IMG/VR virus record: IMGVR_UViG_3300010885_040738
Coordinates: 1-64,000 of that record
DNA length: 64,000 nucleotides
Strand: one strand, 5' to 3'
Origin: a virus
Shown in pieces: positions 44,593-64,000 of the stretch. Position numbers and translations under genes: made by a program. Under the pieces are notes generated by a model that worked only from the letters and a program-made list of their open reading frames with translations, ran no database searches and had not been told where the DNA came from. Within the stretch, counting starts at the first letter, position 1. Every line of letters begins with the position of its first letter.

Positions 44593-46920
44593 ATGGCTGA
44601 AATCCTCGGTGAGGCTCCGGAAGCCCTTTCCAATTCCGAAATCATCAAACGGTACGGCAGTCATTTGGACGTGGTTACCAAGGCGGCGACCGACCCAACG
44701 TATGACTTTGAACGAAGCATTCTGATCTCGCAGGCGCGCCAGCAGTGGCTGATGGTCAAGGGAAACCCGAACCCTGTCCTTGGCTGGGGGCCCAGCGACT
44801 ACGGCGGGCAGCAGGCGTCCTGGATTCCGTTTGACTACACGTCTTCGCAGGAAGAGACCGGCGCGGACGTCAAACTCTGTCCTCCGATCAACTTCATTGG
44901 CGGCGACTGCTTTAAGTTTATGGCCGTGATGGGGTCATCCTCTCCCAGGGTCAAAGGTGTGGCTGACGATCTCCGCGATCAGGGCGATATTGCAACAGCT
45001 TACTGTGCCGACACCAACATCCGGGACCTGTGGATCAAGAACAAGATTGACCGGCTCTGGAAGATTGCCGCATTCCATATGTACACCACGGGGCCGTGCT
45101 TCATGCGCGGCTACTGGAATACCGACAAGGTGAAGTACGGCGAGACGCAGGAACCGAAGATCGAGATTGTCTTTGGCGAGGACGGCGTTCCGATACCAAA
45201 GGTCGTCGGGACGCAGTCTTATGCGAACGGCGATGCCGAAGTAAGCTTTCACAGCGTCCTGGAAGTCACGATTCCGTGGGAAGCGAAAGAGCTTCGTGGG
45301 AACTTCCTCTGCTGCGAGCGCATGCTGTCCAAATGGGCGCTTCTTGCAAAGTACCCGGGAAAAAATGATGAGCCAGGGCCTTTGGATCAGTATCGCGGTG
45401 GCGACGTTCCTGACGACAAGATGAGCGGGGCGACGGTTGCGGCGCAAGAAGCGAAGACGGCGACGTCAAACCCATCAATGACGGCGCAGAGCAAGCGGCC
45501 GGACACGTGGCGGTTTACGGAGTGGTGGGTTCCTCCGTATCTCTACGAGGCGGTAACGTCAGGGGAGGCGCGGGAGGTTCTGAAGCGCCAGTTTTCCCGC
45601 GGGCTGTATATTGCACGAGTAGGATCTGTTGTTGTCGAGATTGAAGAGCGCGAAGTCACCGACGAATGGACGGTTTGTGGCGTCAACCGCGGTGAGAAGA
45701 TCATGGAGCGGCCGGTGTGCGCCGACAACGTCCCAATCCAGCGCGCCATCAACGACCTCATGGGGATGGCGATCGAAACCATTCTTCGGGCGATCACCCA
45801 GACCATTATTGATAACCAGCTCATTGACCGCCAGGCGATGAGCACCCGGGAGGCAATCCCGGCGGAAATGATTCTGACGGCGATGCCGCCGGAAGGTGAT
45901 CTTCGAGCCAAGATCTTCCAGATCCCGCCGGCCCACCTGAGCGATCAGGCATTGCCGCTGCTGAATCTGATGCGGTCCATGGGGCAGGATATTTCTGGCG
46001 TGCGTCCGGAACTGTCTGGCGGTGGCCAGCCGACCAGCACGTACCGCGAGGCGAAGCAGCGGAAGGATCAGGCGTTGGCCCAGCTGGCGCCACAAGCGCA
46101 GGCAATGCGGGATGCGGCTGAGGATCTGGGGAAGATTCTTGTGAATCTCCGGGCAAAGTACGGCTCCGGAATTGTCAAGTCTCAGCGACGTGGCGCGTAT
46201 GGCGTCGAGACTGACGTCGCGAACATGGAAGACCTGAAGGAAACTGGTTGGCATCCGGAATCGGATGACCAGTTTCCGTTGACGCTTTCCGACAAGCGCG
46301 ATTCGGTTTACAGTCTAATCAAAGAGATGCCGCCGGAAGTTCAGGCGTTCCTCGGCGTTCTCGATGTTCTCAACGTTGAGGAGCTTTGCGAACTGCTGCA
46401 GGTCCCCGGTTTCCAAAGCGCGATCGCGGACCAAAAGAAGAAGACGCTGGCCGAGATTGACGAGCTTATGGCACAGGAGCCGGTTATGCAGGAACCTGGC
46501 CCCGACGGTCAGGTTCCGCCGGCAAAGTCATCTATTCCGATTGACCCGTACGATAACCATCAGGTTGCGGCGGCCGTTAAGTCGCGCTGGCTGATTGCGA
46601 ACCAGCAGGTGAAGGGTACGCCTGGCTTTGCCAACGTGGAAGCGTCGTGGACCGAGCAAAATGAAATGGCGCAACCGCCGCAGCCGCCTCCGCCTCCGCC
46701 GGTAAAGGGCAGCTTGTCAATGAGCGCCAAGCTTGAGGACTTCCCGAACCTAATGCCGCAGGTGATGGAGGCGGCCGGCATGCAGCCACCGCCTCCGCCA
46801 GCACCAACGCCGCAACAGCCGCTGGCTGGTGGGCCACAAAACCTGACTGGAGCAATGACACCGGATGCAAACCTACAGCCGCTCCCCGCGGGCCCCCAAC
46901 CTCCCCAGGGGGCGATGTAA
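44593..46920 (+). CDS. Portal protein
   Basis: 775 aa after TerL; Q..IN and DISGV...SG motifs; Pro/Gln-rich tail. Confidence 0.8.
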   Translation: MAEILGEAPEALSNSEIIKRYGSHLDVVTKAATDPTYDFERSILISQARQQWLMVKGNPNPVLGWGPSDYGGQQASWIPFDYTSSQEETGADVKLCPPINFIGGDCFKFMAVMGSSSPRVKGVADDLRDQGDIATAYCADTNIRDLWIKNKIDRLWKIAAFHMYTTGPCFMRGYWNTDKVKYGETQEPKIEIVFGEDGVPIPKVVGTQSYANGDAEVSFHSVLEVTIPWEAKELRGNFLCCERMLSKWALLAKYPGKNDEPGPLDQYRGGDVPDDKMSGATVAAQEAKTATSNPSMTAQSKRPDTWRFTEWWVPPYLYEAVTSGEAREVLKRQFSRGLYIARVGSVVVEIEEREVTDEWTVCGVNRGEKIMERPVCADNVPIQRAINDLMGMAIETILRAITQTIIDNQLIDRQAMSTREAIPAEMILTAMPPEGDLRAKIFQIPPAHLSDQALPLLNLMRSMGQDISGVRPELSGGGQPTSTYREAKQRKDQALAQLAPQAQAMRDAAEDLGKILVNLRAKYGSGIVKSQRRGAYGVETDVANMEDLKETGWHPESDDQFPLTLSDKRDSVYSLIKEMPPEVQAFLGVLDVLNVEELCELLQVPGFQSAIADQKKKTLAEIDELMAQEPVMQEPGPDGQVPPAKSSIPIDPYDNHQVAAAVKSRWLIANQQVKGTPGFANVEASWTEQNEMAQPPQPPPPPPVKGSLSMSAKLEDFPNLMPQVMEAAGMQPPPPPAPTPQQPLAGGPQNLTGAMTPDANLQPLPAGPQPPQGAM

Positions 46921-46921
46921 G

Positions 46922-47473
46922 GTGGTCGGGAAGTACGGGCAGAAGAAGCCGAAGACCGAGCACAGCTTTTCTTCGACGCAGGTAAACCTGACAGGCCCGG
47001 CGAAGGATGCTGTGATTGCGATGGCCAAGGCTATCCCGAGCAGGGAGCTGGCGGAAGATGGCCGCGAGGACACTCCCCACACAACAGTAAAGTACGGGTT
47101 GCATTTTCGCAGCCCCAGCGCAAGACTGCGGCGAGTGATTCAGGAGTTCGGCGTCATTACGGCGACTCTCGGGAAGACGAGCTTGTTCCAGAACGATGAT
47201 GCGGACGTGCTGAAAGTAGACGTTGACTCTACAGATCTTCACCGGCTGAATGCGCTGGTGTCGAAGGTGATTCCGACACACACGACTCACCCGACCTACA
47301 TCCCGCACGTGACGATTGCGTACCTCAAGCCCGGGCTGGGCAAGAAATATGCTGGGCGTGACGATCTCGCCGGGCGCAAGTTGCAGTTCGACAGTGTCCT
47401 GTTCTCAGGTAAAGACGGGCACGTGGAAGAAATTAAGCTGGGCAGTAAACGTGCTTATCGAGCGGTCGCGTAA
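46922..47473 (+). CDS. 2H phosphoesterase, Acb1/T4 57B-like
   Basis: Two HxT motifs: PHTTVKYG and YIPHVTIAY. Confidence 0.8.
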   Translation: MVGKYGQKKPKTEHSFSSTQVNLTGPAKDAVIAMAKAIPSRELAEDGREDTPHTTVKYGLHFRSPSARLRRVIQEFGVITATLGKTSLFQNDDADVLKVDVDSTDLHRLNALVSKVIPTHTTHPTYIPHVTIAYLKPGLGKKYAGRDDLAGRKLQFDSVLFSGKDGHVEEIKLGSKRAYRAVA

Positions 47474-49299: not shown

Positions 49300-49339
49300 C
49301 CGGCCTACGTCTCACGAGCAGGTGCGTGAGGATACTAAA

Positions 49340-50617
49340 TTGGCTTCAAATACGCTTTGGCAGCAGTCCGAGATCGTTCGGACAAAGCTTTTTCCTTTCT
49401 GGGCAACTGCGGACTTCAAGGTCCTCACCGATTTCATCGCAAAAGGCGAAGTGGAAATCGTCGGAGAACGCGATTACCGCATCCCGTTTAAGACCACGTT
49501 TGGTGGCCGAGTAGGTCACTACGACAATCAGCTTGGCGACATGGGGCGCGGTTCGTCTCCCCAGGGCAACGTCATGCTGCAGTCGTTCTACAGCCTGCGC
49601 ATCAACTTCGAGTTTGACATGATGCAGATCAAGGCAACGACCAGCAAGAAGCAGGCTGTTCAGAATCCTTTCGTTCAGTGCATCTCGGAAGGCTTCCGCG
49701 AATTCGAGCTGATCTGGGACAAGATCATTCACGGCAACGGCACCGCCGTCCTCGGGACTTCCAATGCCTACTCAACCGGCACCGGCGTTTCGGTCTACAC
49801 CCTGACCAACACGTTTGGCGTCCAGTTGCTCCGTCGCGGCCAGTTCTACACGATCTACGATTCGACCCTCACCACGGTCAAGTCCAACGGCGTGCTTTAC
49901 GCGGCTCAGATCAACACTCAGGCGCGCACGCTGACCATGAGCGGCATCGTTCCCGGCGGCGCGTCCGGCGATCTGATCTGCTTTGAAGGTGTCACCGGTG
50001 CGACTCCGGCCGGCCCCCGCGGCTTGGCTTACTGGGTCTCTGCGGCCGCTTCCGGAACCACGGCCGGCATCAACCGGGCGACGGAAAACCAGATCATCTC
50101 GAAGTCGGTCTCCGGCACCAACGGGCTGACGGTCGACGTGGTCATGGCGCTTCACGATCGCATCCAGATGGATCGCGGCGAAGTTCCCAACTTGATGGGT
50201 GTCGTCGGCAACGCGCAGCGCGCCTACGCCTACACCCAGATGGAAGCCATCCAGATGTCGCTGATCGAAAACGGCGACAAGCAGGCCGGTCTGTTCGACC
50301 GCTTGCCCAAGCTGAAGGGCAAGAAGTTCTTCATGTGGGGTGACGTTCCGCACTACGTTGACATCCATGCGGATGCGACCACTGCGTACTACGTCTGCCC
50401 CGAAGACTTTGGCCGCGCCCAGCTCGCTCCCACCGGGTTCTTCGAGACTCCCGGCAAGAGCGGTCAGGATGCTCGCTTCATCCAGCTTTACGGCTCGTCC
50501 GGTGGCCCGGCAGCGGGTGTCTGGTTCGGCATGACCAAGGACCAGGACATTTACTGCACAAATTCCGGCCAGCAGGGTTTAGTCACATCCCTTCCGCTCG
50601 GGTCGCTTTACGCCTAA
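49340..50617 (+). CDS. Major capsid protein
   Basis: About 425 aa, position after scaffold, strongly biased codons, G.G.G motif, terminator after. Confidence 0.75.
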   Translation: MASNTLWQQSEIVRTKLFPFWATADFKVLTDFIAKGEVEIVGERDYRIPFKTTFGGRVGHYDNQLGDMGRGSSPQGNVMLQSFYSLRINFEFDMMQIKATTSKKQAVQNPFVQCISEGFREFELIWDKIIHGNGTAVLGTSNAYSTGTGVSVYTLTNTFGVQLLRRGQFYTIYDSTLTTVKSNGVLYAAQINTQARTLTMSGIVPGGASGDLICFEGVTGATPAGPRGLAYWVSAAASGTTAGINRATENQIISKSVSGTNGLTVDVVMALHDRIQMDRGEVPNLMGVVGNAQRAYAYTQMEAIQMSLIENGDKQAGLFDRLPKLKGKKFFMWGDVPHYVDIHADATTAYYVCPEDFGRAQLAPTGFFETPGKSGQDARFIQLYGSSGGPAAGVWFGMTKDQDIYCTNSGQQGLVTSLPLGSLYA

Positions 50618-50629
50618 GCGGTTTCTCTC

Positions 50630-50663
50630 GGGAGGGGGTCGCAAGGCCCCCTCTCTTTCTTTT
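50630..50663 (+). terminator. Terminator after the capsid gene
   Basis: GGGAGGGGGTC-GCAA-GGCCCCCTCTC followed by a T-rich tail. Confidence 0.75.
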
Positions 50664-52210: not shown

Positions 52211-53221
52211 ATGGCATTTCCAACCAGGCTACAGGTTAAGCAGAGATTTTGGTCTTTGCTGGACGACCCTGCCGGCGTTGTCTACACGGACGCGCCGGGG
52301 CCTGGTGGGAGCCCCAGCCTATTTCAGAATGCGTTCAGCGAGGCGTACGACGTTCTGTACAGCACTATGCTGGGGCAGCAGGTCACTCGGGTTGAACAGG
52401 TAGTTGACGGCATCATTGTCCCCGTTGGGACGACTTCTATGTCGCCAGCGGAAATGGGGATTACGGATTTCGCGGATTTTGACTGGATCTCAGAACGCTC
52501 GGCTGGCAGCACTGAGAAGTTTATTGACCTCGTGGGTGAGGACCGCCTGACGCAGCGTGCGCAGACAGATCGTCTGATCGAGACAGTGTTTCAGGATGGC
52601 GCGTTCAAGTTTGTTGGCGCCACGACCGTTCGCGAGCTCCAAATGAAGTACATTGCGTCAGGTTCGGCCCCGACCCTTGATGCGACCGAGATCCGGATTG
52701 ATTCGTCGCTCAACTTCTTGGCGAACTATGCAGCTGGCACTGTCGGCAGCAATAAAGGGTACGAGCAAATGGCGGCCAAGTGCATGCTCAATGCTGTCGG
52801 GCCACGGTTTGCAAATGGCGGGGGCCCGGGCGGGATGTTGTTCTATTTGATCCAGCCCTTGGTCCGGAGCCGTCAGAACGTACCCGTGGCTCACAAGCCC
52901 TACACGACAGCGCGCCGGATCGGTGTCGGGCGCAGGACTGTCCCCTACGTGGCCGCGCAAGCCGGCACCACCGGTGGAGGCGCGCAGAACGTGCCGGTGC
53001 AGTATTCCAGCGTTGGTGGCGGCATCAGTGGTGACATTGACGGCGTGAACGCGACGTTCTGGTTGCCGGTCCCCGTGCTGAGTTTCAATCTCTACCTGAA
53101 TGGTGATTTCCAGCCGCTGAACGTGGCGTACACAGCTCTCAACAACCAGTTCACTTTCGTCGGCTCCGTTCCGCAAGTCGGAGATACAATTACCGCCGAA
53201 GTTTGGGTTGCTTACCAGTAA
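52211..53221 (+). CDS. Putative head-tail adaptor with a C-terminal repeat module
   Basis: Position; helical N-terminus; GDIDGVN..F module. Confidence 0.55.
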   Translation: MAFPTRLQVKQRFWSLLDDPAGVVYTDAPGPGGSPSLFQNAFSEAYDVLYSTMLGQQVTRVEQVVDGIIVPVGTTSMSPAEMGITDFADFDWISERSAGSTEKFIDLVGEDRLTQRAQTDRLIETVFQDGAFKFVGATTVRELQMKYIASGSAPTLDATEIRIDSSLNFLANYAAGTVGSNKGYEQMAAKCMLNAVGPRFANGGGPGGMLFYLIQPLVRSRQNVPVAHKPYTTARRIGVGRRTVPYVAAQAGTTGGGAQNVPVQYSSVGGGISGDIDGVNATFWLPVPVLSFNLYLNGDFQPLNVAYTALNNQFTFVGSVPQVGDTITAEVWVAYQ

Positions 53222-53268
53222 GGCGTAGTCCCGTGGCGTCTGCCTGTTTTCGCTGGTAGAATAGGCCC

Positions 53269-54753
53269 ATGATCAAACGCACGATTTTGGCGCTGACTGC
53301 CATGGCCGTCAGCCTGTTCGCACAGACATCAACCTTCCCGACGGCCGTCGCCACTGACGCTGACCTCAAGGTTCAGGTAAACGGCACTCAAACCACTCTG
53401 ACCGCGGCACTTAGCGCCGTAGCCACTAGCACGACAGTCTCCAGTTGCACTCGCATCGGGCCGAATATGCTGGCGACCATCAACACCGAGATCATCGCAA
53501 TTGCCAACTGTCTCGGGACCACGCTCACTTTCGCGACTACCTCGCCTGGCTGCACGAATGGCAGGGCCTGCGACAATTCGACGGCCGCCGCACATGCCTC
53601 TGGAGCCAACGTCAGCCTGTTTGCCGATGCGTGGCACCACAACGCCTTGCGCGTGCAGGTGGAGGCTATCCAAACCGCTTTGTACAGAGGTGCCAGCCCG
53701 ACGTGGGCCAATATCACGTCGAACGCGAATGTCAACGCAAAGGCTTTCAACTTTTACGACAACACAGGGGAGGTGATCGATTTTGGCCACTTCGGCATGG
53801 ACGCGAAGGTTAACGCTATTGACAAAGAACTATATATCAGAGACACTGCCGGAGCGGTAATGTTGACGTTGAGGTCTAGCGGCAGCGCTTACATTGGTTC
53901 AGTGCTAAACTTCGTTGTCGGCAGCAACCTCAGTGAGAAAAACCTGCAGGTTTACGGCACGGTCACGGCGACAGGTACGGTTTCTTCATCACGCAGTACG
54001 GCCGGTAGCGCTATATCCGGGACAACGACCTATGCGGACCCGGCGGCGTACGGCGTGTATGGGTCATCGACAAACGGCGCCGGTATTTACGGCGTTTCAC
54101 TTTATGGAACTGGCGTCAAGGGTTCTGGCTCGACTTATGGCGTGTATGGGTCGTCCACATCAGGCAATGGCGTTTTTGGTATAGACACTGCAGGCGGAGC
54201 AGGCGTAACTGGAAGCAGCGATGCTGGCTATGGCCTTCGCGGCCTGTCTGATTCCGGGGTAGCGATCATTGCCTCAAGCGTTTCAGGTGTGGCCCTTTCT
54301 GTCACCAGAAACAATAGCGGCCCAGCCGTAACGATTACGACAACTGCAAGCGGCAGCGGCATTTTAGTAAACGCTGCAAATAGCACGGTAATTACCGGCA
54401 CTACAGGTTCATCGACATCCGCAGTTCTGATTGATAGCGGCGGCACTTGCACGATCCGTGCGTCGGCAGGTATTGCCTGCGTTTCCGACGGGCGGAACAA
54501 AAAAGATGTGCGACCAGTCCCATCTTCCCTCGCCAAGGTTCTCCGCTTAAAACCGGTTGAGTACAACATGATAAGCGATGGCCAGCATGCCGTCGGGCTT
54601 ATTGCGCAGGAAGTGCAGAAACAGTTTCCCCAAGCTGTGCAGGAGACAGAAGACGGGAAACTGACTCTTTCCTACCAGCAATTGTTTCCGTACCTGTTGA
54701 AGGCAGTGCAGGAGCAGCAGGTTGAGATCAACAGGCTGAAGGCTCGCAAATGA
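53269..54753 (+). CDS. Tail fibre with Peptidase S74 intramolecular chaperone and signal-peptide-like N-terminus
   Basis: GVYG repeats; SDGRNKKDV...LKPVEY...GLIAQEV; MIKRTILALTAMAVSLFA-Q. Confidence 0.8.
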   Translation: MIKRTILALTAMAVSLFAQTSTFPTAVATDADLKVQVNGTQTTLTAALSAVATSTTVSSCTRIGPNMLATINTEIIAIANCLGTTLTFATTSPGCTNGRACDNSTAAAHASGANVSLFADAWHHNALRVQVEAIQTALYRGASPTWANITSNANVNAKAFNFYDNTGEVIDFGHFGMDAKVNAIDKELYIRDTAGAVMLTLRSSGSAYIGSVLNFVVGSNLSEKNLQVYGTVTATGTVSSSRSTAGSAISGTTTYADPAAYGVYGSSTNGAGIYGVSLYGTGVKGSGSTYGVYGSSTSGNGVFGIDTAGGAGVTGSSDAGYGLRGLSDSGVAIIASSVSGVALSVTRNNSGPAVTITTTASGSGILVNAANSTVITGTTGSSTSAVLIDSGGTCTIRASAGIACVSDGRNKKDVRPVPSSLAKVLRLKPVEYNMISDGQHAVGLIAQEVQKQFPQAVQETEDGKLTLSYQQLFPYLLKAVQEQQVEINRLKARK

Positions 54754-55043
54754 AGGTAGTGGCCCTTGCTTTGCTGGCTATGGTCTTATATGCGCAGACA
54801 CCAGCGCCTGCCCCCAAAAACGTCCCGACGGATCTTTCAAACGATTACTTTGCCGCCTACGCTGAGACGTTGAGCATCCGCGAAATGCTGTCGAGGTCGG
54901 ATGCGGAAATGCGCGCCGCCTACGCAGCCATGCAGGCGTACTGCAAAGGCGACGTAATCATGAATCCGGAGAACAAGCGGCGGTTCGTGTGTAAGCCCGA
55001 GCCAGCAGCCGCACCCCCCCCGCCGGAGCCAGCCAGGAAATAA
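54750..55043 (+). CDS. Small protein with signal peptide
   Basis: MKVVALALLAMVLYA-Q. Confidence 0.7.
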   Translation: MKVVALALLAMVLYAQTPAPAPKNVPTDLSNDYFAAYAETLSIREMLSRSDAEMRAAYAAMQAYCKGDVIMNPENKRRFVCKPEPAAAPPPPEPARK

Positions 55044-55044
55044 A

Positions 55045-55761
55045 ATGCCAGCTTACTTGCCAGGGACAGGGCTACCGGGGCAGATCGTCCCCGGGTTTGA
55101 CCCGTACGACACGCCGGTTATCCCGGGCGAGTACGTGCCTGCAGCGCAGGTTGCGACGATATCAACGCCGCTGGCCTCGCCGCCGCAGCAGTTCACGAAC
55201 GTTGAAACGCTGATCAACGGTGGCTACCTCAGTCCACGGGTTCTGCTCTTCATCAACAACAGGCCCATCACGGCGACGGCCGTATTGCCTGGACAGTCGC
55301 TGCCCGGGACATCGCTCCCAGGGTACGCACCAGTGCCGTACGGACGCCTTCTGACCGAAGGTCTTGACTACACAATTACCGGTGGAGTTGTGACGATGGC
55401 ATTTCCGCCGACAGGGGCTGATATGCTGACAGCCGTTGTATTTTCGCCGGGCAAAGCGCTTGGCGGCCCACTGCCGACGCGGTTTATTGCTCCATGGCAG
55501 TTGCCACTACCGCTTTCCGGGCTCTATGACGGAGTCTCGACGCTTTACCGCGTAGTCTTTAGCCGCACTATCTTCGGCGTTCTGGATGGCGTGAACAAAG
55601 TGTTTACGTGGGGCGTGCAGGTCCGCAAGGCTTCAATCTTTGTGAATGGGAAAATGCAGACAATGACACGCAGCGTGTCCATGGGGCCGACGGCGATGGT
55701 CTTCGCAGCCACGAACATCCCGCAGCCAGGCGACATCATTTCCATGCTGGGGTACCTGTGA
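55045..55761 (+). CDS. Virion protein with repeat modules
   Basis: LTEGLDYT and DGVNKVF modules. Confidence 0.65.
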   Translation: MPAYLPGTGLPGQIVPGFDPYDTPVIPGEYVPAAQVATISTPLASPPQQFTNVETLINGGYLSPRVLLFINNRPITATAVLPGQSLPGTSLPGYAPVPYGRLLTEGLDYTITGGVVTMAFPPTGADMLTAVVFSPGKALGGPLPTRFIAPWQLPLPLSGLYDGVSTLYRVVFSRTIFGVLDGVNKVFTWGVQVRKASIFVNGKMQTMTRSVSMGPTAMVFAATNIPQPGDIISMLGYL

Positions 55762-57656
55762 TGACGCCGCTTCCGATCCAGTACACAACTTCTGACGCCT
55801 CCCTGATCGGCGACGTTGACGGTGCAAACCGTAGCTATTACTTTGTCCCTGTACCGAATCTTTTGCTTTGCAGCGCGACCGGCATTCGGTCATTTCTGAT
55901 GTTCTGGAACGGACTACTGGTTGACCAGCCCGGCGACTACGTGGCGCACAACGGGTACTTCGTCTTTAACTCCTCGGTCCAGTTCGACACTGCGACGGCG
56001 CTGGCGTACACCGACACCGCGCCGTCAATTCTTCGCCTCTCTGACACGTCGATCACTGCCTTTGGAAGCAACTCCCTCCGGATCTCATTCGGCAACGCCG
56101 CATTCGTTGCGCAGCGGCAGTTCGTCCTGTTCCGCAACGGGCTTCGCCTCACCGACGGGCTGGACTACACGTCGTCGGGTCCGTGGATCAACCTTGTTGC
56201 CGGGCAGGAGATTTTGGACGGCGACCAGTATTCGGTTCTCATCGGTCCAGTCGGAACGGCCTGCAGTACCGCCAACGGAACGATCACTGGCTTGATAGAT
56301 GGGCTCAATCTCAACTTTGAAGTTCCTAACACCGGGCCGCTCTGGCTGTTCAAGAATGGCATTTTTTTGACTGAAGGGCTGGACTTCAGCAGGTACGAGA
56401 CGACAGTGAGCCTGCGCGGGCAAGCACCATTGCCGGGGGATACACTGACCGGGCAACTTTTGCCTGCCGGTTATTCATTCACCGAGCTTTCAACCTTCAG
56501 TGATGCTTTCATTTCGAGTCCGGTTGCCACGCAAAGTAACACAGTCGATGGGTCGATAACAGGATCAATAGACGGCTACAACGCTGCCTTTACAATCCCG
56601 GAAGGGTCTCAGAATTTTTGGCTGTTCCGTGATGGGCAGCTTTTGACTAACGACCTCGATTATTCAAGACTTGGTCAGATTGTTACTCTGGCAGGAGATC
56701 AGGTCCCGATCCCGGGCGATCTCCTGACCGGCCAATCATTCGCCTCCGGGAACATGCTGCAGGCGTCAACGTATGCAGGTTCCATCACCGGAACCATTGA
56801 TGGCGTCAACCCTGACTTCGTCGTCCCTTCGGGGGCCTCAAGCTTATGGCTCTTCAGAAACGGGCAACTGCTTACCCGGGGGCTGGACTACACACTGGCT
56901 GTGGATACCGTTACTCTTTTAGGCACGGCGATCCCCTCTGGCGATGATGTTTTGACGGCCAAATACACCAGCGCCACCTTCTCTGCGCAAATTTCAACCT
57001 TCGACAACTCAATCACTGGGACCATCAATGGCGTCAATGATACATTCACCGTCCCGGATGGATCTGCCGGGATATGGATTTCCCGTAATGGGCAATTCCT
57101 TACCGAATTGGTGGACTACATAAGGGCGGGAGCGGTCATTATCATGTCCCCTTGGCAGATCCCGATAGTTGGCGATGTGCTCACAGGGCAGGCATATCAA
57201 TATGGCCCGTCTGCGGTGTTTTCGGTTTATGGCGGAGGGCTGACATTTTCCGTAGCTGCCGCGTCATGGGTATTCGCCGATGGGCTGATCCTGCCGCAGC
57301 TCGGATCAGCGCAGGCAGACGGGAATAGCATCACGCTAACGGATGCGGCAATCTCAGGCAGCACCATCACTGCAGAGTCATGGGTGCAAATTGCATCCGA
57401 GCCTGAACAGCCGGCGCTCAATTTTGGTACGCAGTACAGTTCAGACGATGGCGGGATCTCCGGCGACATGAATAGCTCAAATGCGGTGTTCACCATCAAC
57501 GACAGCGGACTGATCACGCAGGTCATGCTTTTCGTGAATCGCAGGTTTCTGGTTCAGAATCGCGACTACGCTTGGACAGGAAACACAATTACCATGCTGG
57601 CAGGCAGTATCCCTGACGCCGGCGACGTCTTTACCTCGATCGTATTCAGCGATTGA
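55761..57656 (+). CDS. Virion protein built of tandem ~70-aa repeats
   Basis: Repeated G.IDG.N..F...LFRNG..LT...DY...P..GD.LT. Confidence 0.75.
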   Translation: MTPLPIQYTTSDASLIGDVDGANRSYYFVPVPNLLLCSATGIRSFLMFWNGLLVDQPGDYVAHNGYFVFNSSVQFDTATALAYTDTAPSILRLSDTSITAFGSNSLRISFGNAAFVAQRQFVLFRNGLRLTDGLDYTSSGPWINLVAGQEILDGDQYSVLIGPVGTACSTANGTITGLIDGLNLNFEVPNTGPLWLFKNGIFLTEGLDFSRYETTVSLRGQAPLPGDTLTGQLLPAGYSFTELSTFSDAFISSPVATQSNTVDGSITGSIDGYNAAFTIPEGSQNFWLFRDGQLLTNDLDYSRLGQIVTLAGDQVPIPGDLLTGQSFASGNMLQASTYAGSITGTIDGVNPDFVVPSGASSLWLFRNGQLLTRGLDYTLAVDTVTLLGTAIPSGDDVLTAKYTSATFSAQISTFDNSITGTINGVNDTFTVPDGSAGIWISRNGQFLTELVDYIRAGAVIIMSPWQIPIVGDVLTGQAYQYGPSAVFSVYGGGLTFSVAAASWVFADGLILPQLGSAQADGNSITLTDAAISGSTITAESWVQIASEPEQPALNFGTQYSSDDGGISGDMNSSNAVFTINDSGLITQVMLFVNRRFLVQNRDYAWTGNTITMLAGSIPDAGDVFTSIVFSD

Positions 57657-57789
57657 CTTGACTAGGTATGACCCAGTTTCCCTTCGGCCCGCCGGGCTGA
57701 TACGCTCCGGGAATTCCGCCGCGTTTGAGCCATCGGTAAACCGTCTTTAATGCCACCCCGGCTCGCGCCGCATATTCTTTCGCAGTCAT
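57646..57789 (-). CDS. 47-aa excisionase-like (MerR-type) HTH protein (not in the ORF track)
   Basis: MTAKEYAARAGVALKTVYRWLKRGGIPGAYQPGGPKGNWVIP; TACAAT just upstream. Confidence 0.75.
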   Translation of the reverse strand: MTAKEYAARAGVALKTVYRWLKRGGIPGAYQPGGPKGNWVIPSQVNR

Positions 57790-57915
57790 CAAACGTCATT
57801 GTATCCCAAATTGAGACATAAGCGGACAGCGGCATGCGCGGCTCGCCGAAATGGTTCTATGCTGAATTCGAGGGTACAACTTTCTGTGCCCAAGTTCAGA
57901 TAAGGAGTTTTCCTC

Positions 57916-58398
57916 ATGGCCGCAGCTACACTCACCACCAACGCGCCTGGTCGGCAATCCTCGCCAATCAATGTTGCCACCTTCATCCCTGTCACGGTCA
58001 CCCTGACTGCAACCGTTTACGCGGCGGCCAGCGGCGGCGCTCCGATCGACCTCACAACCGTCCTCCAGCAGGCAGCGCCTTCTGGCTGGGATGCGCCCAA
58101 CTATGTTCAGGCGATCAACCCGGCTGACGTCGTTGGCATTTTCGCCCCAAACCTTTCGACAAACGGATTCCTGCCGATGTCGCTCGTGATCGGGACCCCG
58201 ACGTACACGGCGGTTCCCGGGCAGTCCGCCAACGGCGTGTCTGCCACTCCCGGCATTCTTGCCACCTGCCCTGCAACGTTCCGCCTCTTCGGGACTGGCG
58301 CAGGTAACGCCCTCGCTCTCGCTCAGGTGGCTGACGGTGCCGTCACCGACGCCGTCACCTTCTGGCTTGTCGTCATGCGCAACGGCGCGAACAACTAA
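57916..58398 (+). CDS. Putative structural/decoration protein
   Basis: Strong SD TAAGGAG; Ala/Thr/Gly-rich. Confidence 0.65.
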   Translation: MAAATLTTNAPGRQSSPINVATFIPVTVTLTATVYAAASGGAPIDLTTVLQQAAPSGWDAPNYVQAINPADVVGIFAPNLSTNGFLPMSLVIGTPTYTAVPGQSANGVSATPGILATCPATFRLFGTGAGNALALAQVADGAVTDAVTFWLVVMRNGANN

Positions 58399-58427
58399 GC
58401 GGCAACTGAGGCTCAAGGACAACTACC

Positions 58428-59168
58428 ATGGCCATAATTGCAAGCACCGGCAAGCGCCGGAATTTCAGAGAATCGCTCTGGGCGATCGTCAATCAGTGCT
58501 GGTTCGGCGTTGATTCAACTGGCATTGACCTGCCTCCCCTCGCACTTAACGCTGCATTCATCACGGGCGTCAATGCGGCAGGTACGGGGGTCGTCAATCT
58601 GATCGGCCCGAACGCAGCCGACGGGGCAACTATCCCTGTCGCGCTCACCGTCACTGGTGCATTTACCCCTACCGGTGGGGCTGTTCAAACCTCCGCCACC
58701 ACATGGAAGCATCAGTATGCCGGTGGCATCACGCCAATTGCGACGACCAGCGGGACAGACACGGCCGGCATTAACGGCACGGTTTTTATCTCCGAAATAT
58801 TCGTCCCGGCGAATATGACACTGACCGGCCTCAGCTTCCTCATTGGCACAGTTGGCGGCACCGACAAGGCCATCGCCATGTTGTTCAGTTCAGCTGGCGC
58901 TCTTCTGGCGAACTCCGCGCTGGCCGGCGTAACTGTCAGCACTGCGGCGACCTTCCAGCGGCTTCCGTTCACCGCGACTTATGCTGCGATTGGGCCCGGC
59001 AAGTATTACGTCGGCGTTCAATACAACGGCGCAACGGCGAAGATCCGGACCCAGCCAGCCGGGGACCACGACGCGGTCTCCATCTCGCAGACATTCGGGA
59101 CGCCGGTGGCAATTACCGCGCCATCGACGTTCACTGCGTCTACCGGGCCGATTTCAATGCTGTACTAA
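58428..59168 (+). CDS. Putative structural protein
   Basis: Thr/Gly-rich, beta-rich C-terminal domain. Confidence 0.65.
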   Translation: MAIIASTGKRRNFRESLWAIVNQCWFGVDSTGIDLPPLALNAAFITGVNAAGTGVVNLIGPNAADGATIPVALTVTGAFTPTGGAVQTSATTWKHQYAGGITPIATTSGTDTAGINGTVFISEIFVPANMTLTGLSFLIGTVGGTDKAIAMLFSSAGALLANSALAGVTVSTAATFQRLPFTATYAAIGPGKYYVGVQYNGATAKIRTQPAGDHDAVSISQTFGTPVAITAPSTFTASTGPISMLY

Positions 59169-59176
59169 GGGAGCCA

Positions 59177-59506
59177 ATGGAACTGACAGTCGCAGAGCGC
59201 CTGCTTCTGTTTCGCGTGATACCGCCCGCCGAAGGAGACTTTCTCTTTCTGCGGGCGGTGCGTGCGTTACGTGAAAGCCTTGCTCTTTCCCCGGAAGAGA
59301 TCGCCGAACTTTCCTTTGAGCAGCGTCAAGTTGGCGATGGCGTTCGTTACAGCTGGAACCCGGAAAAAGCCGTCGGCCATGTTCGCGAGATTGAGATCCC
59401 GGCCGTAGTGGCTCCGTACATCTCTCGCAGCATCCTTGCGGCAAAGGGGCTGCAGGAAGAGCACTTGGACTTTTATGGCCGATTCGTTTTAGAGGAGCAA
59501 AAGTGA
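59177..59506 (+). CDS. Hypothetical protein (possible assembly chaperone)
   Basis: SD GGAG; lies between structural genes. Confidence 0.6.
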   Translation: MELTVAERLLLFRVIPPAEGDFLFLRAVRALRESLALSPEEIAELSFEQRQVGDGVRYSWNPEKAVGHVREIEIPAVVAPYISRSILAAKGLQEEHLDFYGRFVLEEQK

Positions 59507-61767
59507 GAGTCCTGGTATTGTTAACATTGGCTATTTCGGCGTTCGGCCAAACCGTTACGCAGGTTGACTACAACACGCAGGTCAAGAACAGGCCGATTGT
59601 TTCCGATGCGGGCGCCGCAACTTTTGCAGTTGCTTGTGCTCGGGGCTCTGGTGGCGCAACTGTTTCAGTCACAGTAGCGTGGCTCAACGTACCAACACAG
59701 TCATGCTCGGCCAATCTGGCGTTTAACGGCGGGAGTATCCAGCCTGCCGCTGGCGCGACTGTGACGCTTACTGGGTCTATTACCGCGCCACCAAACAAGA
59801 TTCTGGACTACTCAGCAGGCGGAACTGTTAATTTGAGCGGCTCGAAGCTGTCACTTGGGGTACTGCCGCAGTGGCTGGGAGTGACCGGAAGCGGAGCCAA
59901 CGAGACCGTCAACCTGCAAAACGCGCTTGATATCTCTGTTGCATCTGGAAAACCTTTGTATGTTCCCACAGGGACCTATGCGATGTGCAACATTTCCACC
60001 ACTACAACGGGGGCTGTGACTATTACTGGTGCGGGAATGAATCAGTCGAAGTTTATTCGCCACAGTTCCTGTCTGCACAGCACCGATACCATGCTAACCG
60101 CAACCTTTACTGGTTCCAGCGGAACGGCTGAATTGCGAAACTTTAGCATAAGTAATGTATCGAGCAATGGTTCGCTAAATTCTGATGACATTGACATCTT
60201 TGGAGCTTCGCGGGTTCTGGTAGATGGCTTGTACATTGCCAAAGCGGAAACTGCCGGACTGGGTATTCAGTCTTCCTCAAACGTAACCATCACAAATTCC
60301 ACCATATTTGAGAACTACTGGTTCGGCATATCCGTCGCAAACGGTAATGACTGCTGTGGCGGAACAGCCACGCCAGCGTACCTCTACAACTACAACTTCA
60401 GCGGCAATACCTACGTCAATCAGCCTATCGGTTTGGGGCTGAACTTCTTCATGCAGATTATCAATATCTCTGGAGAGACGTTCGACCGTAGCAATCTTTC
60501 TCTGGTACAGATGCCGCACGCGAAGGCGACGATCTCCAACATCACCATCAAAGGAGTTCCGACACAGGGATGTACCGCCGCATGTGGTTTACCTGCTACG
60601 CAAAACGGCCTATTCCTCGAAGGTGTTGCGGATCTCGATTTATCCGCATTTCACATTAGCGATCTGAGCGGCATCGAGGGTGGTATTTTTTGCGTTGCTT
60701 CCACACTTACTATCCCAAATCCGGGAACAATGATTCAACTCCCCTGCTCAAATATCCACATAACGGGCGGAACCATAACCGATGTCACCGCAGGTTACTC
60801 AATTTCTATCGCTGGGCAAAGCCCTGGCCCAGGACCCGTAATTGGCCAGAACAACACCATTAAAGGCACCGTGTTGAAGGGCGTAAACCAGTGCCCTATA
60901 ATTTCAAGCACGGATGGTTTTGAAATCTCGGATGTTTCCTGCGAGAATGCTGCAAATGGCGGTTTTAGCTTAGGATCTGTGCTTAACGGCGTTTTCCAAA
61001 ACAATCGCTGCCGTAATTGCAATACAGCAGGTGGAGGTGGGAACTACCCAGGATTAACTCTCAGCGGGGCCACCTTGCGGCGGGTGAAAGTCTTCAATAA
61101 CACATTCGAGAACAACGGAAGTTCCCTCAACTACGGGATTAGGGACACAACCGGAGTAGCAAATAACGGGGCCGAGATTCAATACTCTGGTAACATCTGC
61201 GCCACTGGATGCCCCACATTGTACAATCCAGCACCAGCCGCTCCATTAGCGGGTACTTGGGCTGTCGGTAGTGTGGTTGAAAACAATTATTCCTCCGGTG
61301 GTATAACGGGTTGGCGCAATACAGTCGCGGGAACTCCCGGAACATGGCAGACAATGGGCTACCTTGACCCAGATTCCCGCTACACCACCATAGCCAGTAA
61401 TCCTGTTCTGCTAAAAGGGACAATAAGCAATGTTTCCCAAACCGCCGCTTTCGGCCCAGCCCCTATCAATAGCGGCACTCTGTCTACGGGACTGTACAGA
61501 GTTTCGTATCGGGCACGTAGCACAGCGGCATGTGCGACACCGGGGCCAGGTTCACTTCAGGTTAATCTGGCATGGATAGATGAATTATTCGGCGTTTCGA
61601 CTACTGTAATTACAATGGCTTTGGGGTCAGTAGTTACTAACCCAGTGCAAGGAGTGTACATTCTATACGTAGGCAACACCTACGTTAATTATCAGGCATA
61701 CTACACTGCCTGTACAACAGGAACCGGGACGTATAGCCTGCAACTTACTTTAGAGAAGTTGCAATGA
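59503..61767 (+). CDS. Tailspike, pectate-lyase-like beta-helix, with signal-peptide-like N-terminus
   Basis: PQWLG..G.G..ET..LQ.ALD, LYVP.GTY, Asn-rich beta-helix repeats; MRVLVLLTLAISAFG-Q. Confidence 0.8.
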   Translation: MRVLVLLTLAISAFGQTVTQVDYNTQVKNRPIVSDAGAATFAVACARGSGGATVSVTVAWLNVPTQSCSANLAFNGGSIQPAAGATVTLTGSITAPPNKILDYSAGGTVNLSGSKLSLGVLPQWLGVTGSGANETVNLQNALDISVASGKPLYVPTGTYAMCNISTTTTGAVTITGAGMNQSKFIRHSSCLHSTDTMLTATFTGSSGTAELRNFSISNVSSNGSLNSDDIDIFGASRVLVDGLYIAKAETAGLGIQSSSNVTITNSTIFENYWFGISVANGNDCCGGTATPAYLYNYNFSGNTYVNQPIGLGLNFFMQIINISGETFDRSNLSLVQMPHAKATISNITIKGVPTQGCTAACGLPATQNGLFLEGVADLDLSAFHISDLSGIEGGIFCVASTLTIPNPGTMIQLPCSNIHITGGTITDVTAGYSISIAGQSPGPGPVIGQNNTIKGTVLKGVNQCPIISSTDGFEISDVSCENAANGGFSLGSVLNGVFQNNRCRNCNTAGGGGNYPGLTLSGATLRRVKVFNNTFENNGSSLNYGIRDTTGVANNGAEIQYSGNICATGCPTLYNPAPAAPLAGTWAVGSVVENNYSSGGITGWRNTVAGTPGTWQTMGYLDPDSRYTTIASNPVLLKGTISNVSQTAAFGPAPINSGTLSTGLYRVSYRARSTAACATPGPGSLQVNLAWIDELFGVSTTVITMALGSVVTNPVQGVYILYVGNTYVNYQAYYTACTTGTGTYSLQLTLEKLQ

Positions 61768-63986
61768 GCATAAGCGGATTCGCCCCCGGGAAAGAGATTA
61801 CCGTACCGCGTGGGGCGTGGCCCGTCATCGCGCAGCGCCGCAAAGGTACGCCTTCTCGCGCCAGCGCCATGCAGAACGCCCGAATACAGTTCGGCACCGC
61901 CAGGAGCCGTGCGGGGACATCGGCGGTCTTCGCCGCGACCGGGAAGGTGAAGGCGATCAGCAATTGGATCACCCCGGGCGACGTGAACCTTGTGCTCTAT
62001 CAGGATGGCGACATCCTAAAGTCGTACCGGCAGGATACGGTGACGTCAGCCACCATCCTCACTGGCCTGACGACAACCCGGTCGCCGGTCTTTGCGCCGC
62101 TCAACGTCTGGAATTACATTTGTGGGTACGACACGTCTGGCAACGGCACTATTCAAACCCGCGTGTTCGACGGAACAAACGCGGACAAAGCATTTCGCGG
62201 GGCCCCGGTCGTGACTACTTGGGACGCGGTGGACTCCGGTGCCGGGCAATGCACCGCAGGGCAGCACTTCATTGGCTTCGTGTACCAGAACAGAACAGGG
62301 TACTCTGGCATTCCGGTCACCGGCTCATCGTTTACGATCTCGGCCGCCACCAACGCGGCACCGTGCGTCCTGACTGCTGTTGGCAATAATCTTATTGACG
62401 GCCAAACCGTGACGATCGCCAGCGGCACAGGCAACACCGCAATCAACGGCACCCGGATTGTCACCAACCGCGTTGGCTCGAACTTCGAGCTTACCGACAC
62501 CGACGGCAACGTCATCAATGGCAATGGAATCTATACCGGTGGCGGGACTGTCACAAACCCGATGCAGGTGACACTGACAGCCGGCCTTCGCAGCATTTCA
62601 GTGACGATCGACTTTCCGGCGCAAACTGACGGCGGTGCTGGTGCTGGCGGCGTTCAATCCACTTTGTTCCTGATCATGACCCGGGCCGACAACCCAAACA
62701 TTCAGTACTTCATCCCAACCGACACGCAGAGTGGCAGCGTCGGCACGCAGCCGGTGCCATACAATACGCCAGCCACACTGACCTTCGTCGCCAGTATTTC
62801 GGACGAGGACATGGCGAACTCGCTGGCTGGTGACACTGCGCAGGCAAACTTTAACCTTCTCGCGCAGGACGCCGCCGGTAACGGCCCCTTCAATCCAAAC
62901 TTTGTCGTCGCCTACGGGAACCGCATGTGTTACGGCGTCGGGACCACGATGTACGCCAGCGACATCAACAATCCTCAGCAGATCGCCGCCGACCTCAACG
63001 CGGTCCGGATGCAGAACCAGCGCAAGATGGGCGCTGCGTTCCAGTTGCCAGGGAACACGAACTTCTACATCACCGGTGACCAGTGGACCGGCTACGTCAC
63101 GGACACCGGCGATTACCCGTCGACGTGGGCTCCTCCCGTCGGCGTGTCAGACAGCCTTGGCGCGCCATTCCAGAACTGCGTTTGCGCTCAAACCGGCGGC
63201 AACTGGGTGTGGATCGTGACGTCTGCCGGACCTTACCTCTACGACGGCGCCTATGGTGAGCAGCCGATCACTTACCTTTACTCCGGCTACGCTCCCGACG
63301 AGTCTCCGATCGGATGGAAGCGTGTCAACTGGAACGCTGCCTACGCCATCCAGATCAAGGACAATGTCAAGGAAAGCAAGCTCTACATTGCAGTGCCCCT
63401 CGACGGCGCAACCGAGCCAAACTTCATGTTCTGCATTGACTACCTGCAGGGCAAGACTTTTGACACCTGCGACATCAGCTTGGACGTCTACAACCCAGCG
63501 CAGTTCTCCAGCATCGGCATCGTGAAAGAGATTGCAACCGGAACCGCGAATCTTTGGATCGGCCCGGCTGCAGCTGGCAACGTTCGCCGCGTGGACGTGG
63601 CGACTCACAACGATGAAGGCTTGGCGATTGATTCGTACTGGGAGTCCGGGCTGTGCCGCGGCGCTGAGTTCCGGACATCAATGATTCGCGTCGGCGCGGT
63701 TGACATCTGGGCCCGCGGGAATGCGCCTTTAGATGTCAACGGGAACCCGACGTTTACCGTGACACTGTATAGTCCAGATCATCAGGTGAGCGTCCCGTTC
63801 ACCTTGCTCAGCACCCAGGGCGTGCCGGCTGCTTTAGTGCCTCAACCGGGGATTGGATACCAGAGCAAATCTGACATCTCAAAAATCGAGAACTACTCTA
63901 TAAGAGTTGGAACGAACGTTATCAACGGATGGTGGGAGCTCAGCATGCTTCGGCCGTACGCTAAGGCTGACCTTTACAACAGGTAA
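61764..63986 (+). CDS. Putative tail tubular/nozzle protein with an FCCH-like insert
   Basis: 740 aa beta-propeller-like composition; ISAATNAAP..T..G..L.DGQTV insert. Confidence 0.6.
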   Translation: MSISGFAPGKEITVPRGAWPVIAQRRKGTPSRASAMQNARIQFGTARSRAGTSAVFAATGKVKAISNWITPGDVNLVLYQDGDILKSYRQDTVTSATILTGLTTTRSPVFAPLNVWNYICGYDTSGNGTIQTRVFDGTNADKAFRGAPVVTTWDAVDSGAGQCTAGQHFIGFVYQNRTGYSGIPVTGSSFTISAATNAAPCVLTAVGNNLIDGQTVTIASGTGNTAINGTRIVTNRVGSNFELTDTDGNVINGNGIYTGGGTVTNPMQVTLTAGLRSISVTIDFPAQTDGGAGAGGVQSTLFLIMTRADNPNIQYFIPTDTQSGSVGTQPVPYNTPATLTFVASISDEDMANSLAGDTAQANFNLLAQDAAGNGPFNPNFVVAYGNRMCYGVGTTMYASDINNPQQIAADLNAVRMQNQRKMGAAFQLPGNTNFYITGDQWTGYVTDTGDYPSTWAPPVGVSDSLGAPFQNCVCAQTGGNWVWIVTSAGPYLYDGAYGEQPITYLYSGYAPDESPIGWKRVNWNAAYAIQIKDNVKESKLYIAVPLDGATEPNFMFCIDYLQGKTFDTCDISLDVYNPAQFSSIGIVKEIATGTANLWIGPAAAGNVRRVDVATHNDEGLAIDSYWESGLCRGAEFRTSMIRVGAVDIWARGNAPLDVNGNPTFTVTLYSPDHQVSVPFTLLSTQGVPAALVPQPGIGYQSKSDISKIENYSIRVGTNVINGWWELSMLRPYAKADLYNR

Positions 63987-64000
63987 CATTATGACAAAAT

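Follow-up and report, generated by a model that had tools for sequence, protein, structure and literature searches.

Several kinds of phage protein are known to use the export machinery of the host, namely Sec-exported and signal-anchor-release endolysins, spanins and lipoprotein exclusion factors. Among cellular enzymes, WceF of Pantoea stewartii, a product of the stewartan exopolysaccharide cluster, is a trimer of tailspike fold that is exported by Tat (PMC7949094). The Q-rule, by which signal peptidase I exposes a Gln residue that glutaminyl cyclase converts to pyroglutamate, has been described for Bacteroidetes, Acidobacteria not having been analysed (Bochtler 2018, PMC5837995). Open reading frames (ORFs) with Q-rule leaders in Porphyromonas prophages have been read as an adaptation to the secretion system of the host; their function is unassigned, and they were not described as tail fibres (Matrishin 2023, PMC10367356). 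These are the nearest precedent, our literature searches having turned up no tail fibre or tailspike with a reported export signal. In this study we describe four genes with predicted signals of this kind in an uncultured freshwater phage represented by a single record of 93,184 bp (IMG/VR IMGVR_UViG_3300010885_040738), the first 64,000 nucleotides of which are the stretch analysed (the window). Judged from their sequences, the encoded proteins are accessory proteins of the receptor-binding type: a tail fibre with a Peptidase_S74 domain, a small partner protein, and two paralogous spikes predicted to be depolymerases.

An earlier note on the window had ascribed Sec-like signal peptides, each with a basic N-region, a hydrophobic core and a small residue before Gln, to the fibre, a neighbour and a tailspike. 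This description holds. The three N-termini, MIKRTILALTAMAVSLFA in the fibre (494 aa; 53269..54753, + strand), MKVVALALLAMVLYA in the partner (97 aa; 54750..55043, +) and MRVLVLLTLAISAFG in tailspike 1 (754 aa; 59503..61767, +), are present at these positions, each ending in A or G before Q, and all three pass a rule-based scan. A fourth case lies outside the range then noted. Tailspike 2 (654 aa, + strand), a paralogue of tailspike 1, starts with an ATG at 63991, 4 nt past the stop of the gene at 61764-63986; it occupies 63991..64000 in the window and runs on to genome position 65955, and its N-terminus is MTKYLALAFLAVAAFG, again followed by Q. The predicted signal peptides comprise aa 1-18 of the fibre (53269-53322, with the cut before Gln19), aa 1-15 of the partner (54750-54794), aa 1-15 of tailspike 1 (59503-59547) and aa 1-16 of tailspike 2.

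The scan required a positive n-region, an uncharged stretch of at least 10 residues that included a hydrophobic core, and a small residue at both -1 and -3. Exactly these four of the 94 genes passed, and each has Gln at +1. The 744 non-gene ORFs of this genome yielded 11 passes, none with Q at +1, and of 18,800 shuffled N-termini 0.6% passed, or 0.02% with Q at +1. By chance, 0.02 genes would be expected to pass with +1 Gln, against the four observed; with such controls, chance is excluded. As to the start codons, that of the partner shares ATGA with the preceding stop of the fibre gene, and that of tailspike 1 is a GTG sharing GTGA with the preceding stop, with AGGAG about 6 nt upstream, while the fibre gene is preceded by a 47-nt gap. 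Misplaced starts were rejected on this context together with the scan controls. The h-regions of the four are 13-14 residues long (uncharged stretch < 15), and the residues at -3/-1 are L/A, L/A, A/G and A/G, so that n-region charge, h-region length and cleavage-site residues agree with Sec and signal peptidase I in all four. Lipoproteins and membrane anchors were rejected, because none of the four has Cys at +1 and the h-regions are too short for an anchor. Therefore, the leaders are of the Sec/signal peptidase I type, as predicted from sequence.

The properties of the leaders are kept in homologues, while their sequences are not. This is seen in the tailspike family (P0002, P0005-P0009), the fibre family (P0011-P0015, all with leaders ending in A before Q) and the family of the 97-aa protein (P0024-P0031), and +1 Gln recurs in nearly all homologues. 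Such free drift of sequence with retention of properties is the behaviour of real signal peptides. It is highly probable that the four proteins leave the cytoplasm by export.

The cysteines follow the leaders. The mature proteins contain 6 (fibre), 2 (partner), 18 (tailspike 1) and 12 (tailspike 2) Cys, all even numbers. The description of the tailspike as Cys-rich in the earlier note is borne out, its 18 Cys amounting to 2.4% of residues versus 0.8% in the leaderless proteins of the structural region, and these cysteines are arranged as neighbouring pairs. Even counts occur in 18 of 20 leader-bearing homologues, and the two leaderless homologues have odd ones (9 Cys in P0004, 5 in P0023). Across the tailspike alignment the pairs 162/190, 357/361, 464/480, 503/506 and 566/570 are present or absent as wholes: both members of all five are missing in leaderless P0004, and 503/506 and 566/570 are lost as pairs in P0005. 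Similarly, C60/C81 of the fibre are replaced in leaderless P0023. At the loci with the fibre domain (see below), 13 of 14 complete leader-bearing proteins have even counts (one false leader call, L069, being excluded), compared with 23 of about 46 leaderless ones; among other ORFs with a leader and +1 Q that neighbour fibre-domain genes, the counts are even in 21 of 22, and PHROG gave no informative match for such neighbours. Published work uses an even number of Cys as a criterion for Dsb substrates (PMC7678975, PMC2823432), and the present proteins conform to it both in their even mature counts and in the joint gain and loss of pairs. Presumably, then, the four proteins are disulfide-bonded.

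The N-terminal domain of the fibre was found in 80 IMG/VR loci, as 65 leaderless, 21 Sec-type and 4 Tat-like copies. In the leaderless copies the domain starts at a distance of either 2-7 or about 20-30 residues from the start codon. In the Sec-type copies, which come from 13 independent loci at 35-45% identity, the leader ends in [AGS] before Q, 3-6 residues ahead of the first motif of the domain, and the predicted cut leaves the same N-terminal end as in the leaderless copies. No locus mixes leader types, and four loci with 2-3 copies are entirely leader-bearing. At L037 (10004-13647) there are three tandem paralogous leader-bearing fibre genes of 402-403 aa with 6 Cys each, whose leaders and N-termini are nearly identical. 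In the domain tree the Sec label needs five changes, of which well-supported branches force only one, and a single origin of Sec-type leaders is possible.

The four Tat-like copies (L057, L071, L074 and L077) carry a twin-arginine-like extension, PTRR[SD][IL]L...ALALGS, and form a well-supported clade nested among leaderless copies. The extension shows 7 synonymous and 8 non-synonymous changes in 22 codons, versus 4 and 21 in the following 32 codons; by these counts it is under stronger purifying selection than the residues that follow. As far as can be read from sequence, phage tailspikes would here bear an export signal of a second kind, independent of the first.

The fibre was characterised by Pfam, PHROG and the leader scan. 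Behind the signal peptide it consists of the N-terminal domain (aa 23-140, motifs [FY]P..ATD ... DAWHHN), a Gly-rich shaft, a C394/C404 loop and a Peptidase_S74 chaperone (aa 406-457, 54484-54639; PF13884, 49 bits, cut-off 22). The expected S74 cleavage site reads S405-D-G-R-N-K-K, and self-cleavage is predicted. The fibre matches many PHROG tail fibre families, down to 4e-21; in cultured phages it was matched solely through its S74 end, the N-terminal domain giving no match. In a related strain from another lake metagenome, two stretches of the shaft, 53811-53950 and 54056-54409, have been exchanged for unrelated ones about as long, the leader and N-terminal domain remaining close; the shaft thus appears to be a hypervariable region.

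The 97-aa partner is predicted to have a leader helix, a long helix (aa 27-65), a beta-hairpin flanked by C65/C81, its only two cysteines, and a Pro/Lys-rich tail (AlphaFold2, pLDDT 88.8). A Foldseek search with this model gave no structural match, and its look-alike clusters in the ESM Atlas are viral. Both Cys recur in seven homologues (85-101 aa), each of which also has a leader; these leaders differ in sequence and end before Q, E or T. The gene order is the same as in the window at L018 (9965-12931), where an 892-aa leader-bearing fibre protein with 18 Cys is directly followed by a 95-aa leader-bearing helical protein with two Cys.

Tailspike 1 was characterised by its Pfam Beta_helix match (PF13229, 41.9 bits, cut-off 25.9), AlphaFold2 and Foldseek. 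It comprises an N-terminal module (aa 16 to about 115, DYNTQVKNRPI), a right-handed beta-helix (about aa 120-560) and a C-terminal domain. The beta-helix core is modelled confidently (pLDDT 80-95); its best Foldseek matches are phage tailspike depolymerases (E about 1e-7), with polysaccharide enzymes of the AlgE, GH87 and RbmB types also found. Tailspike 2 has the same N-terminal module and a different beta-helix (Pfam Beta_helix 36.9 bits, cut-off 25.9; NosD 32.3 bits). In tailspike homologues the leaders are of unrelated sequence ending in G before Q, and the following 100 residues are 68-78% identical. The family pattern is one of a conserved N-terminal module with swapped C-terminal modules, which is typical of virion receptor-binding proteins. 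A search of viral contigs, genome contigs and cultured phages with the tailspike 1 sequence gave no relatives. The two tailspikes are predicted to be beta-helix polysaccharide depolymerases, a substrate being suggested by a homologue in an exopolysaccharide locus.

This homologue (P0003; L002 10001-11764, JAICJH010000005.1) is the best cellular match of the tailspike, at 43% identity over 73% of its length, and comes from a metagenome-assembled genome (MAG) of the Bryobacteraceae (Acidobacteriota). It has an N-terminal hydrophobic leader, and its neighbours, judged by eye from translations, are Wzy-like, Wzx-like, glycosyltransferase and NusG-like genes. A second leader-bearing, beta-helix-like protein lies at L002 14336-16438 (- strand). 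Clean leaders ending in A before Q are numerous in this MAG: in 297 kb, Gln is the top +1 residue of heuristically called leaders (10 of 49, against a 3.4% background), so that the +1 Gln of all four phage leaders has its counterpart in the leaders of the presumed host family. A remote capsid homologue was found in one of 401 Acidobacteriota genomes. By a strict rule, Shine-Dalgarno sequences precede 27% of the phage genes versus 6% of random positions. A search of 185,579 species genomes and of the 401 Acidobacteriota genomes found no prophage with the fibre N-terminal domain, and we therefore infer the host from the above: it is likely to be a Bryobacteraceae-like member of the Acidobacteriota with abundant exopolysaccharide.

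In the genome, the large terminase (40969-43002), portal (44593-46920) and capsid protein (49322-50617) genes precede a tail region, which lies 3' of the capsid gene and ends with a 5,792-aa internal protein past the window. Right behind the capsid gene, at 50630-50655, is a strong intrinsic-terminator-like hairpin of 11 pairs (8 G-C) followed by a T-run. Between the leader-bearing genes lie five leaderless tail-module genes (55045..59506, + strand, 0-2 Cys each). They encode a 238-aa protein (55045-55761), a 632-aa protein with internal repeats (55758-57656), a 160-aa protein (57916-58398), a 246-aa protein that is conserved at its N-terminus and variable at its C-terminus (58428-59168), and a 109-aa protein (59177-59506) translationally coupled to tailspike 1. 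A leaderless 740-aa core tail protein (61764..63986, +; no Pfam hit) sits between the two tailspikes. No fibre or depolymerase domain was found by Pfam in the leaderless tail-region proteins, and all three proteins with a recognisable domain of this kind in the genome are leader-bearing. Genes for lysis, Dsb and signal peptidase were not found in a Pfam search of 10 candidate proteins.

Three of the leaderless tail proteins (52211-53221, at the C-terminus; 55045-55761; 55758-57656) contain many repeats of an ~85-aa module, which may resemble an N-terminal domain of podovirus fibres. Five different segments of the 632-aa protein match one region of a relative (L100), and relatives without the leader-bearing genes have only one or two copies of the module. 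It might be a docking array. Elsewhere, a 202-aa protein between the portal and the scaffold-region genes (46865-47473) matches the 2H phosphoesterase family PF13563 (32.4 bits, cut-off 27), with a weak match, under the cut-off, to the anti-CBASS Acb1 family (21 bits). DNA nearly identical to that of the phage occurs in several freshwater and lake metagenomes and in one lake RNA library.

From what was observed directly, namely the leaders, their conservation, the Cys pattern and the domain content, we infer export, cleavage, disulfide formation and docking in the following manner. The four proteins would be made late in infection, together with the leaderless tail genes, threaded unfolded through SecYEG, and cut before Gln, which may cyclise to pyroglutamate. 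They would fold and trimerise in the periplasm, where disulfides would lock the neighbouring cysteine pairs, with ATP-independent aids such as the C-terminal S74 chaperone and perhaps the 97-aa partner. After holin lesions had merged cytoplasm and periplasm, the mature trimers would dock through their conserved N-terminal modules on otherwise finished cytoplasmic particles, and excess protein might act as free depolymerase. The whole chain, docking at lysis included, is the fate that we favour, although we rate it slightly below an even chance. More tentative still is the generalisation that virions of this kind are assembled in two compartments, the head and core tail in the cytoplasm, while an accessory host-recognition set is exported (by Sec, or by Tat in some relatives), disulfide-bonded, trimmed in the periplasm and added after holin action, and that many uncultured phages whose hosts have Q-rule leaders share this trait.

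Several observations point to joining of the particle. The leader sits exactly before a domain that stands at the extreme N-terminus of ordinary leaderless tailspikes, and this domain stays conserved. The trait is all-or-none per phage. The genes lie between the capsid and internal-protein genes, inside the tail module, with stop and start codons that overlap. In P22 the tailspike is added at the end of assembly, a step that can be carried out in vitro, and the lesions made by holins are of a size that lets cytoplasm and periplasm merge while the outer membrane still holds; late docking would therefore be physically plausible.

A number of points weigh against this proposal. To our knowledge, tailed-phage particles assemble in the cytoplasm, and a route by which periplasmic parts could be added is not described. 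Judged by the capsid protein, the closest relatives are L100 (77%) and L102 (72%); they lack all four leader-bearing genes and keep the core tail genes, with homologues of the 336-, 160-, 246- (N-terminus only), 109-, 740- (50-55% identity), 806- and 484-aa proteins. The four genes are therefore dispensable insertions into a conserved tail. Conservation in relatives, which would mark a virion protein, was thus not found; accessory status is frequent among tailspikes. The leaderless 246-aa protein is a candidate receptor-binding protein by its sequence. In the Cys pattern, P0006 and P0007 have odd counts. The host is assigned from one homologue, one remote capsid match and the style of the leaders. 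A cellular exported enzyme has the same enzyme domain, a fact that agrees equally well with the role of a free enzyme. As regards gene order, the 109-aa gene is conserved in L102, where it stands directly before the homologue of the 740-aa protein, and tailspike 1 accordingly looks inserted between two core genes.

The main rival reading, quite conceivable if somewhat doubtful, is that the proteins are exported and never become part of the particle. As free depolymerases, the spikes would trim the exopolysaccharide or O-antigen of the infected cell, freeing the progeny and removing the receptor for late-arriving phages; the fibre and partner would be a mask or adhesin, and the N-terminal modules would serve in trimerisation. 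This reading requires no new assembly route. It agrees with the accessory status of the genes and their absence from the two relatives, with the homology of the enzyme domain to an exported enzyme of a Bryobacteraceae exopolysaccharide locus, with WceF of Pantoea, a Tat-exported, tailspike-like trimer that trims exopolysaccharide (PMC7949094), and with the Porphyromonas prophages, whose Q-rule leader proteins are read as host-modifying (PMC10367356). It leaves unexplained, however, that 13 loci at low identity retain the N-terminal domain with a cut that restores the same end, that phages with leader-bearing copies show no leaderless copy of the domain, that the genes are translationally coupled inside the tail module, and that the modules are swapped as in virion receptor-binding proteins. 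In addition, leader-bearing proteins are recorded in the virion proteome of Cellulophaga phage phi18:3 (NC_021794, Pachyviridae). Its adjacent large proteins gp085, gp086 and gp087 have leaders ending in S or A before Q and are annotated as virion or tail proteins from tandem mass spectrometry (MS/MS; GenBank note), whereas its nine other MS/MS virion proteins are leaderless. These proteins are non-homologous to those of the window and have few Cys, and they could have co-purified with the virions, which limits their weight for docking.

It is improbable that the leaders are not used for export at all, the proteins folding and joining in the cytoplasm with the hydrophobic N-terminus buried in the tail or adaptor or removed by a phage protease, and the cysteines oxidising once the particles are out in oxic water. 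In favour of this, tailed phages as a rule assemble in the cytoplasm. The almost Cys-free gp085-087 of phi18:3 are virion proteins with leaders, so that leaders and disulfides need not go together, and predicted leaders on Porphyromonas capsid proteins were taken as prohead-protease substrates (PMC10367356). On the other hand, the full n/h/c anatomy and a host-type +1 Gln are present in all four proteins and nearly all homologues, the leader sequence drifts while its properties stay, an independent Tat-type leader is seen on the same domain, and Cys pairs and even counts track the leader, which oxidation after release would not predict. Least probable of all, and very unlikely, is that the proteins are surface factors of lysogens, a fibre operon being expressed from its own promoter to give exported adhesins or superinfection blockers. 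An extended -10-like motif, TGGTAGAAT (53254..53262, + strand), lies 6 nt before the fibre ATG with no Shine-Dalgarno sequence between, and contains the one TGNTANAAT of the 64-kb window, for which 2.6 occurrences are expected. It might act as the promoter of a leaderless transcript. The promoter claimed here by the earlier note thus stands as to the presence, placement and uniqueness of the motif; no -35 element was found for it, and a generic promoter and terminator scan of the window gave sites not above chance and did not list the motif. Moreover, the fibre domain family was not found as a prophage in the genomes searched, a promoter-like site is missing in front of three of the four genes, which are coupled to late tail genes, and in a diderm cell a Sec leader by itself takes a protein no further than the periplasm. 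RNA-library contigs identical to the phage cover the fibre, the 160- and 246-aa genes and the tailspike; transcript starts are invisible in contigs, and DNA carry-over is possible. Of the note's proposal that receptor-binding proteins are exported and then either join particles or are displayed, the export is well supported by the conserved leader properties, the host-like +1 Gln and the Cys pairs; either of the two fates that it offers may apply, display by lysogens being backed by the one motif.

If the docking proposal is true, it would constitute a systematic exception to purely cytoplasmic virion assembly, and would account for disulfide-stabilised fibres in some phages and possibly for glycosylated ones in Bacteroidota. 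Annotation would have to change, since signal peptides currently serve to exclude virion proteins; phage engineering would be affected, such fibres needing periplasmic expression for folding; and Sec, signal peptidase I and Dsb would be host factors for infectivity. If instead the proteins act as free enzymes, the secretion of tailspike-like depolymerases into the envelope of the cell under infection would give phages a new means of release or exclusion. The question may be tested in the cultured pair phi18:3 and Cellulophaga baltica.

In comparison with known systems, the four proteins share with classical tailspikes and fibres (P22 gp9, Sf6, CBA120 TSP3, phi29 gp12, Klebsiella K2 depolymerases and endosialidase-type S74 fibres) the beta-helix core, the N-terminal module with swapped distal modules, the S74 chaperone and the position in the tail module. 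The classical proteins, however, have no signal peptide and fold in the cytoplasm, whereas those described here have Sec leaders, even Cys counts and conserved Cys pairs. Like exported endolysins, spanins and exclusion factors, they would be late products that pass through the host Sec system and act in the envelope, but those proteins serve in lysis and exclusion and have no fibre, tailspike or S74 architecture. Compared with the known occurrences of Q-rule leaders, the present ones differ in the likely host, an Acidobacteriota bacterium, and in being borne by proteins of the fibre and tailspike type. WceF resembles the window proteins as an exported beta-helix enzyme; it acts on the exopolysaccharide of its own cell, and the P0003 locus is comparable by description. 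It is chromosomal, however, uses Tat and has no phage N- or C-terminal modules, whereas the window proteins are of the Sec type and are encoded in a phage tail module; a Tat-like leader is also borne by the four phage proteins of the fibre-domain family. Phi18:3, in turn, is a cultured short-tailed phage of a Bacteroidota host, whose gp085-087 have no detectable similarity to the window proteins, contain 0-3 Cys and show no disulfide signature. What is new here is that Cys pairs vary together with the leader, that the trait is distributed in an all-or-none manner and has a Tat variant, that a homologue lies in a host exopolysaccharide locus, and that the genes are accessory.

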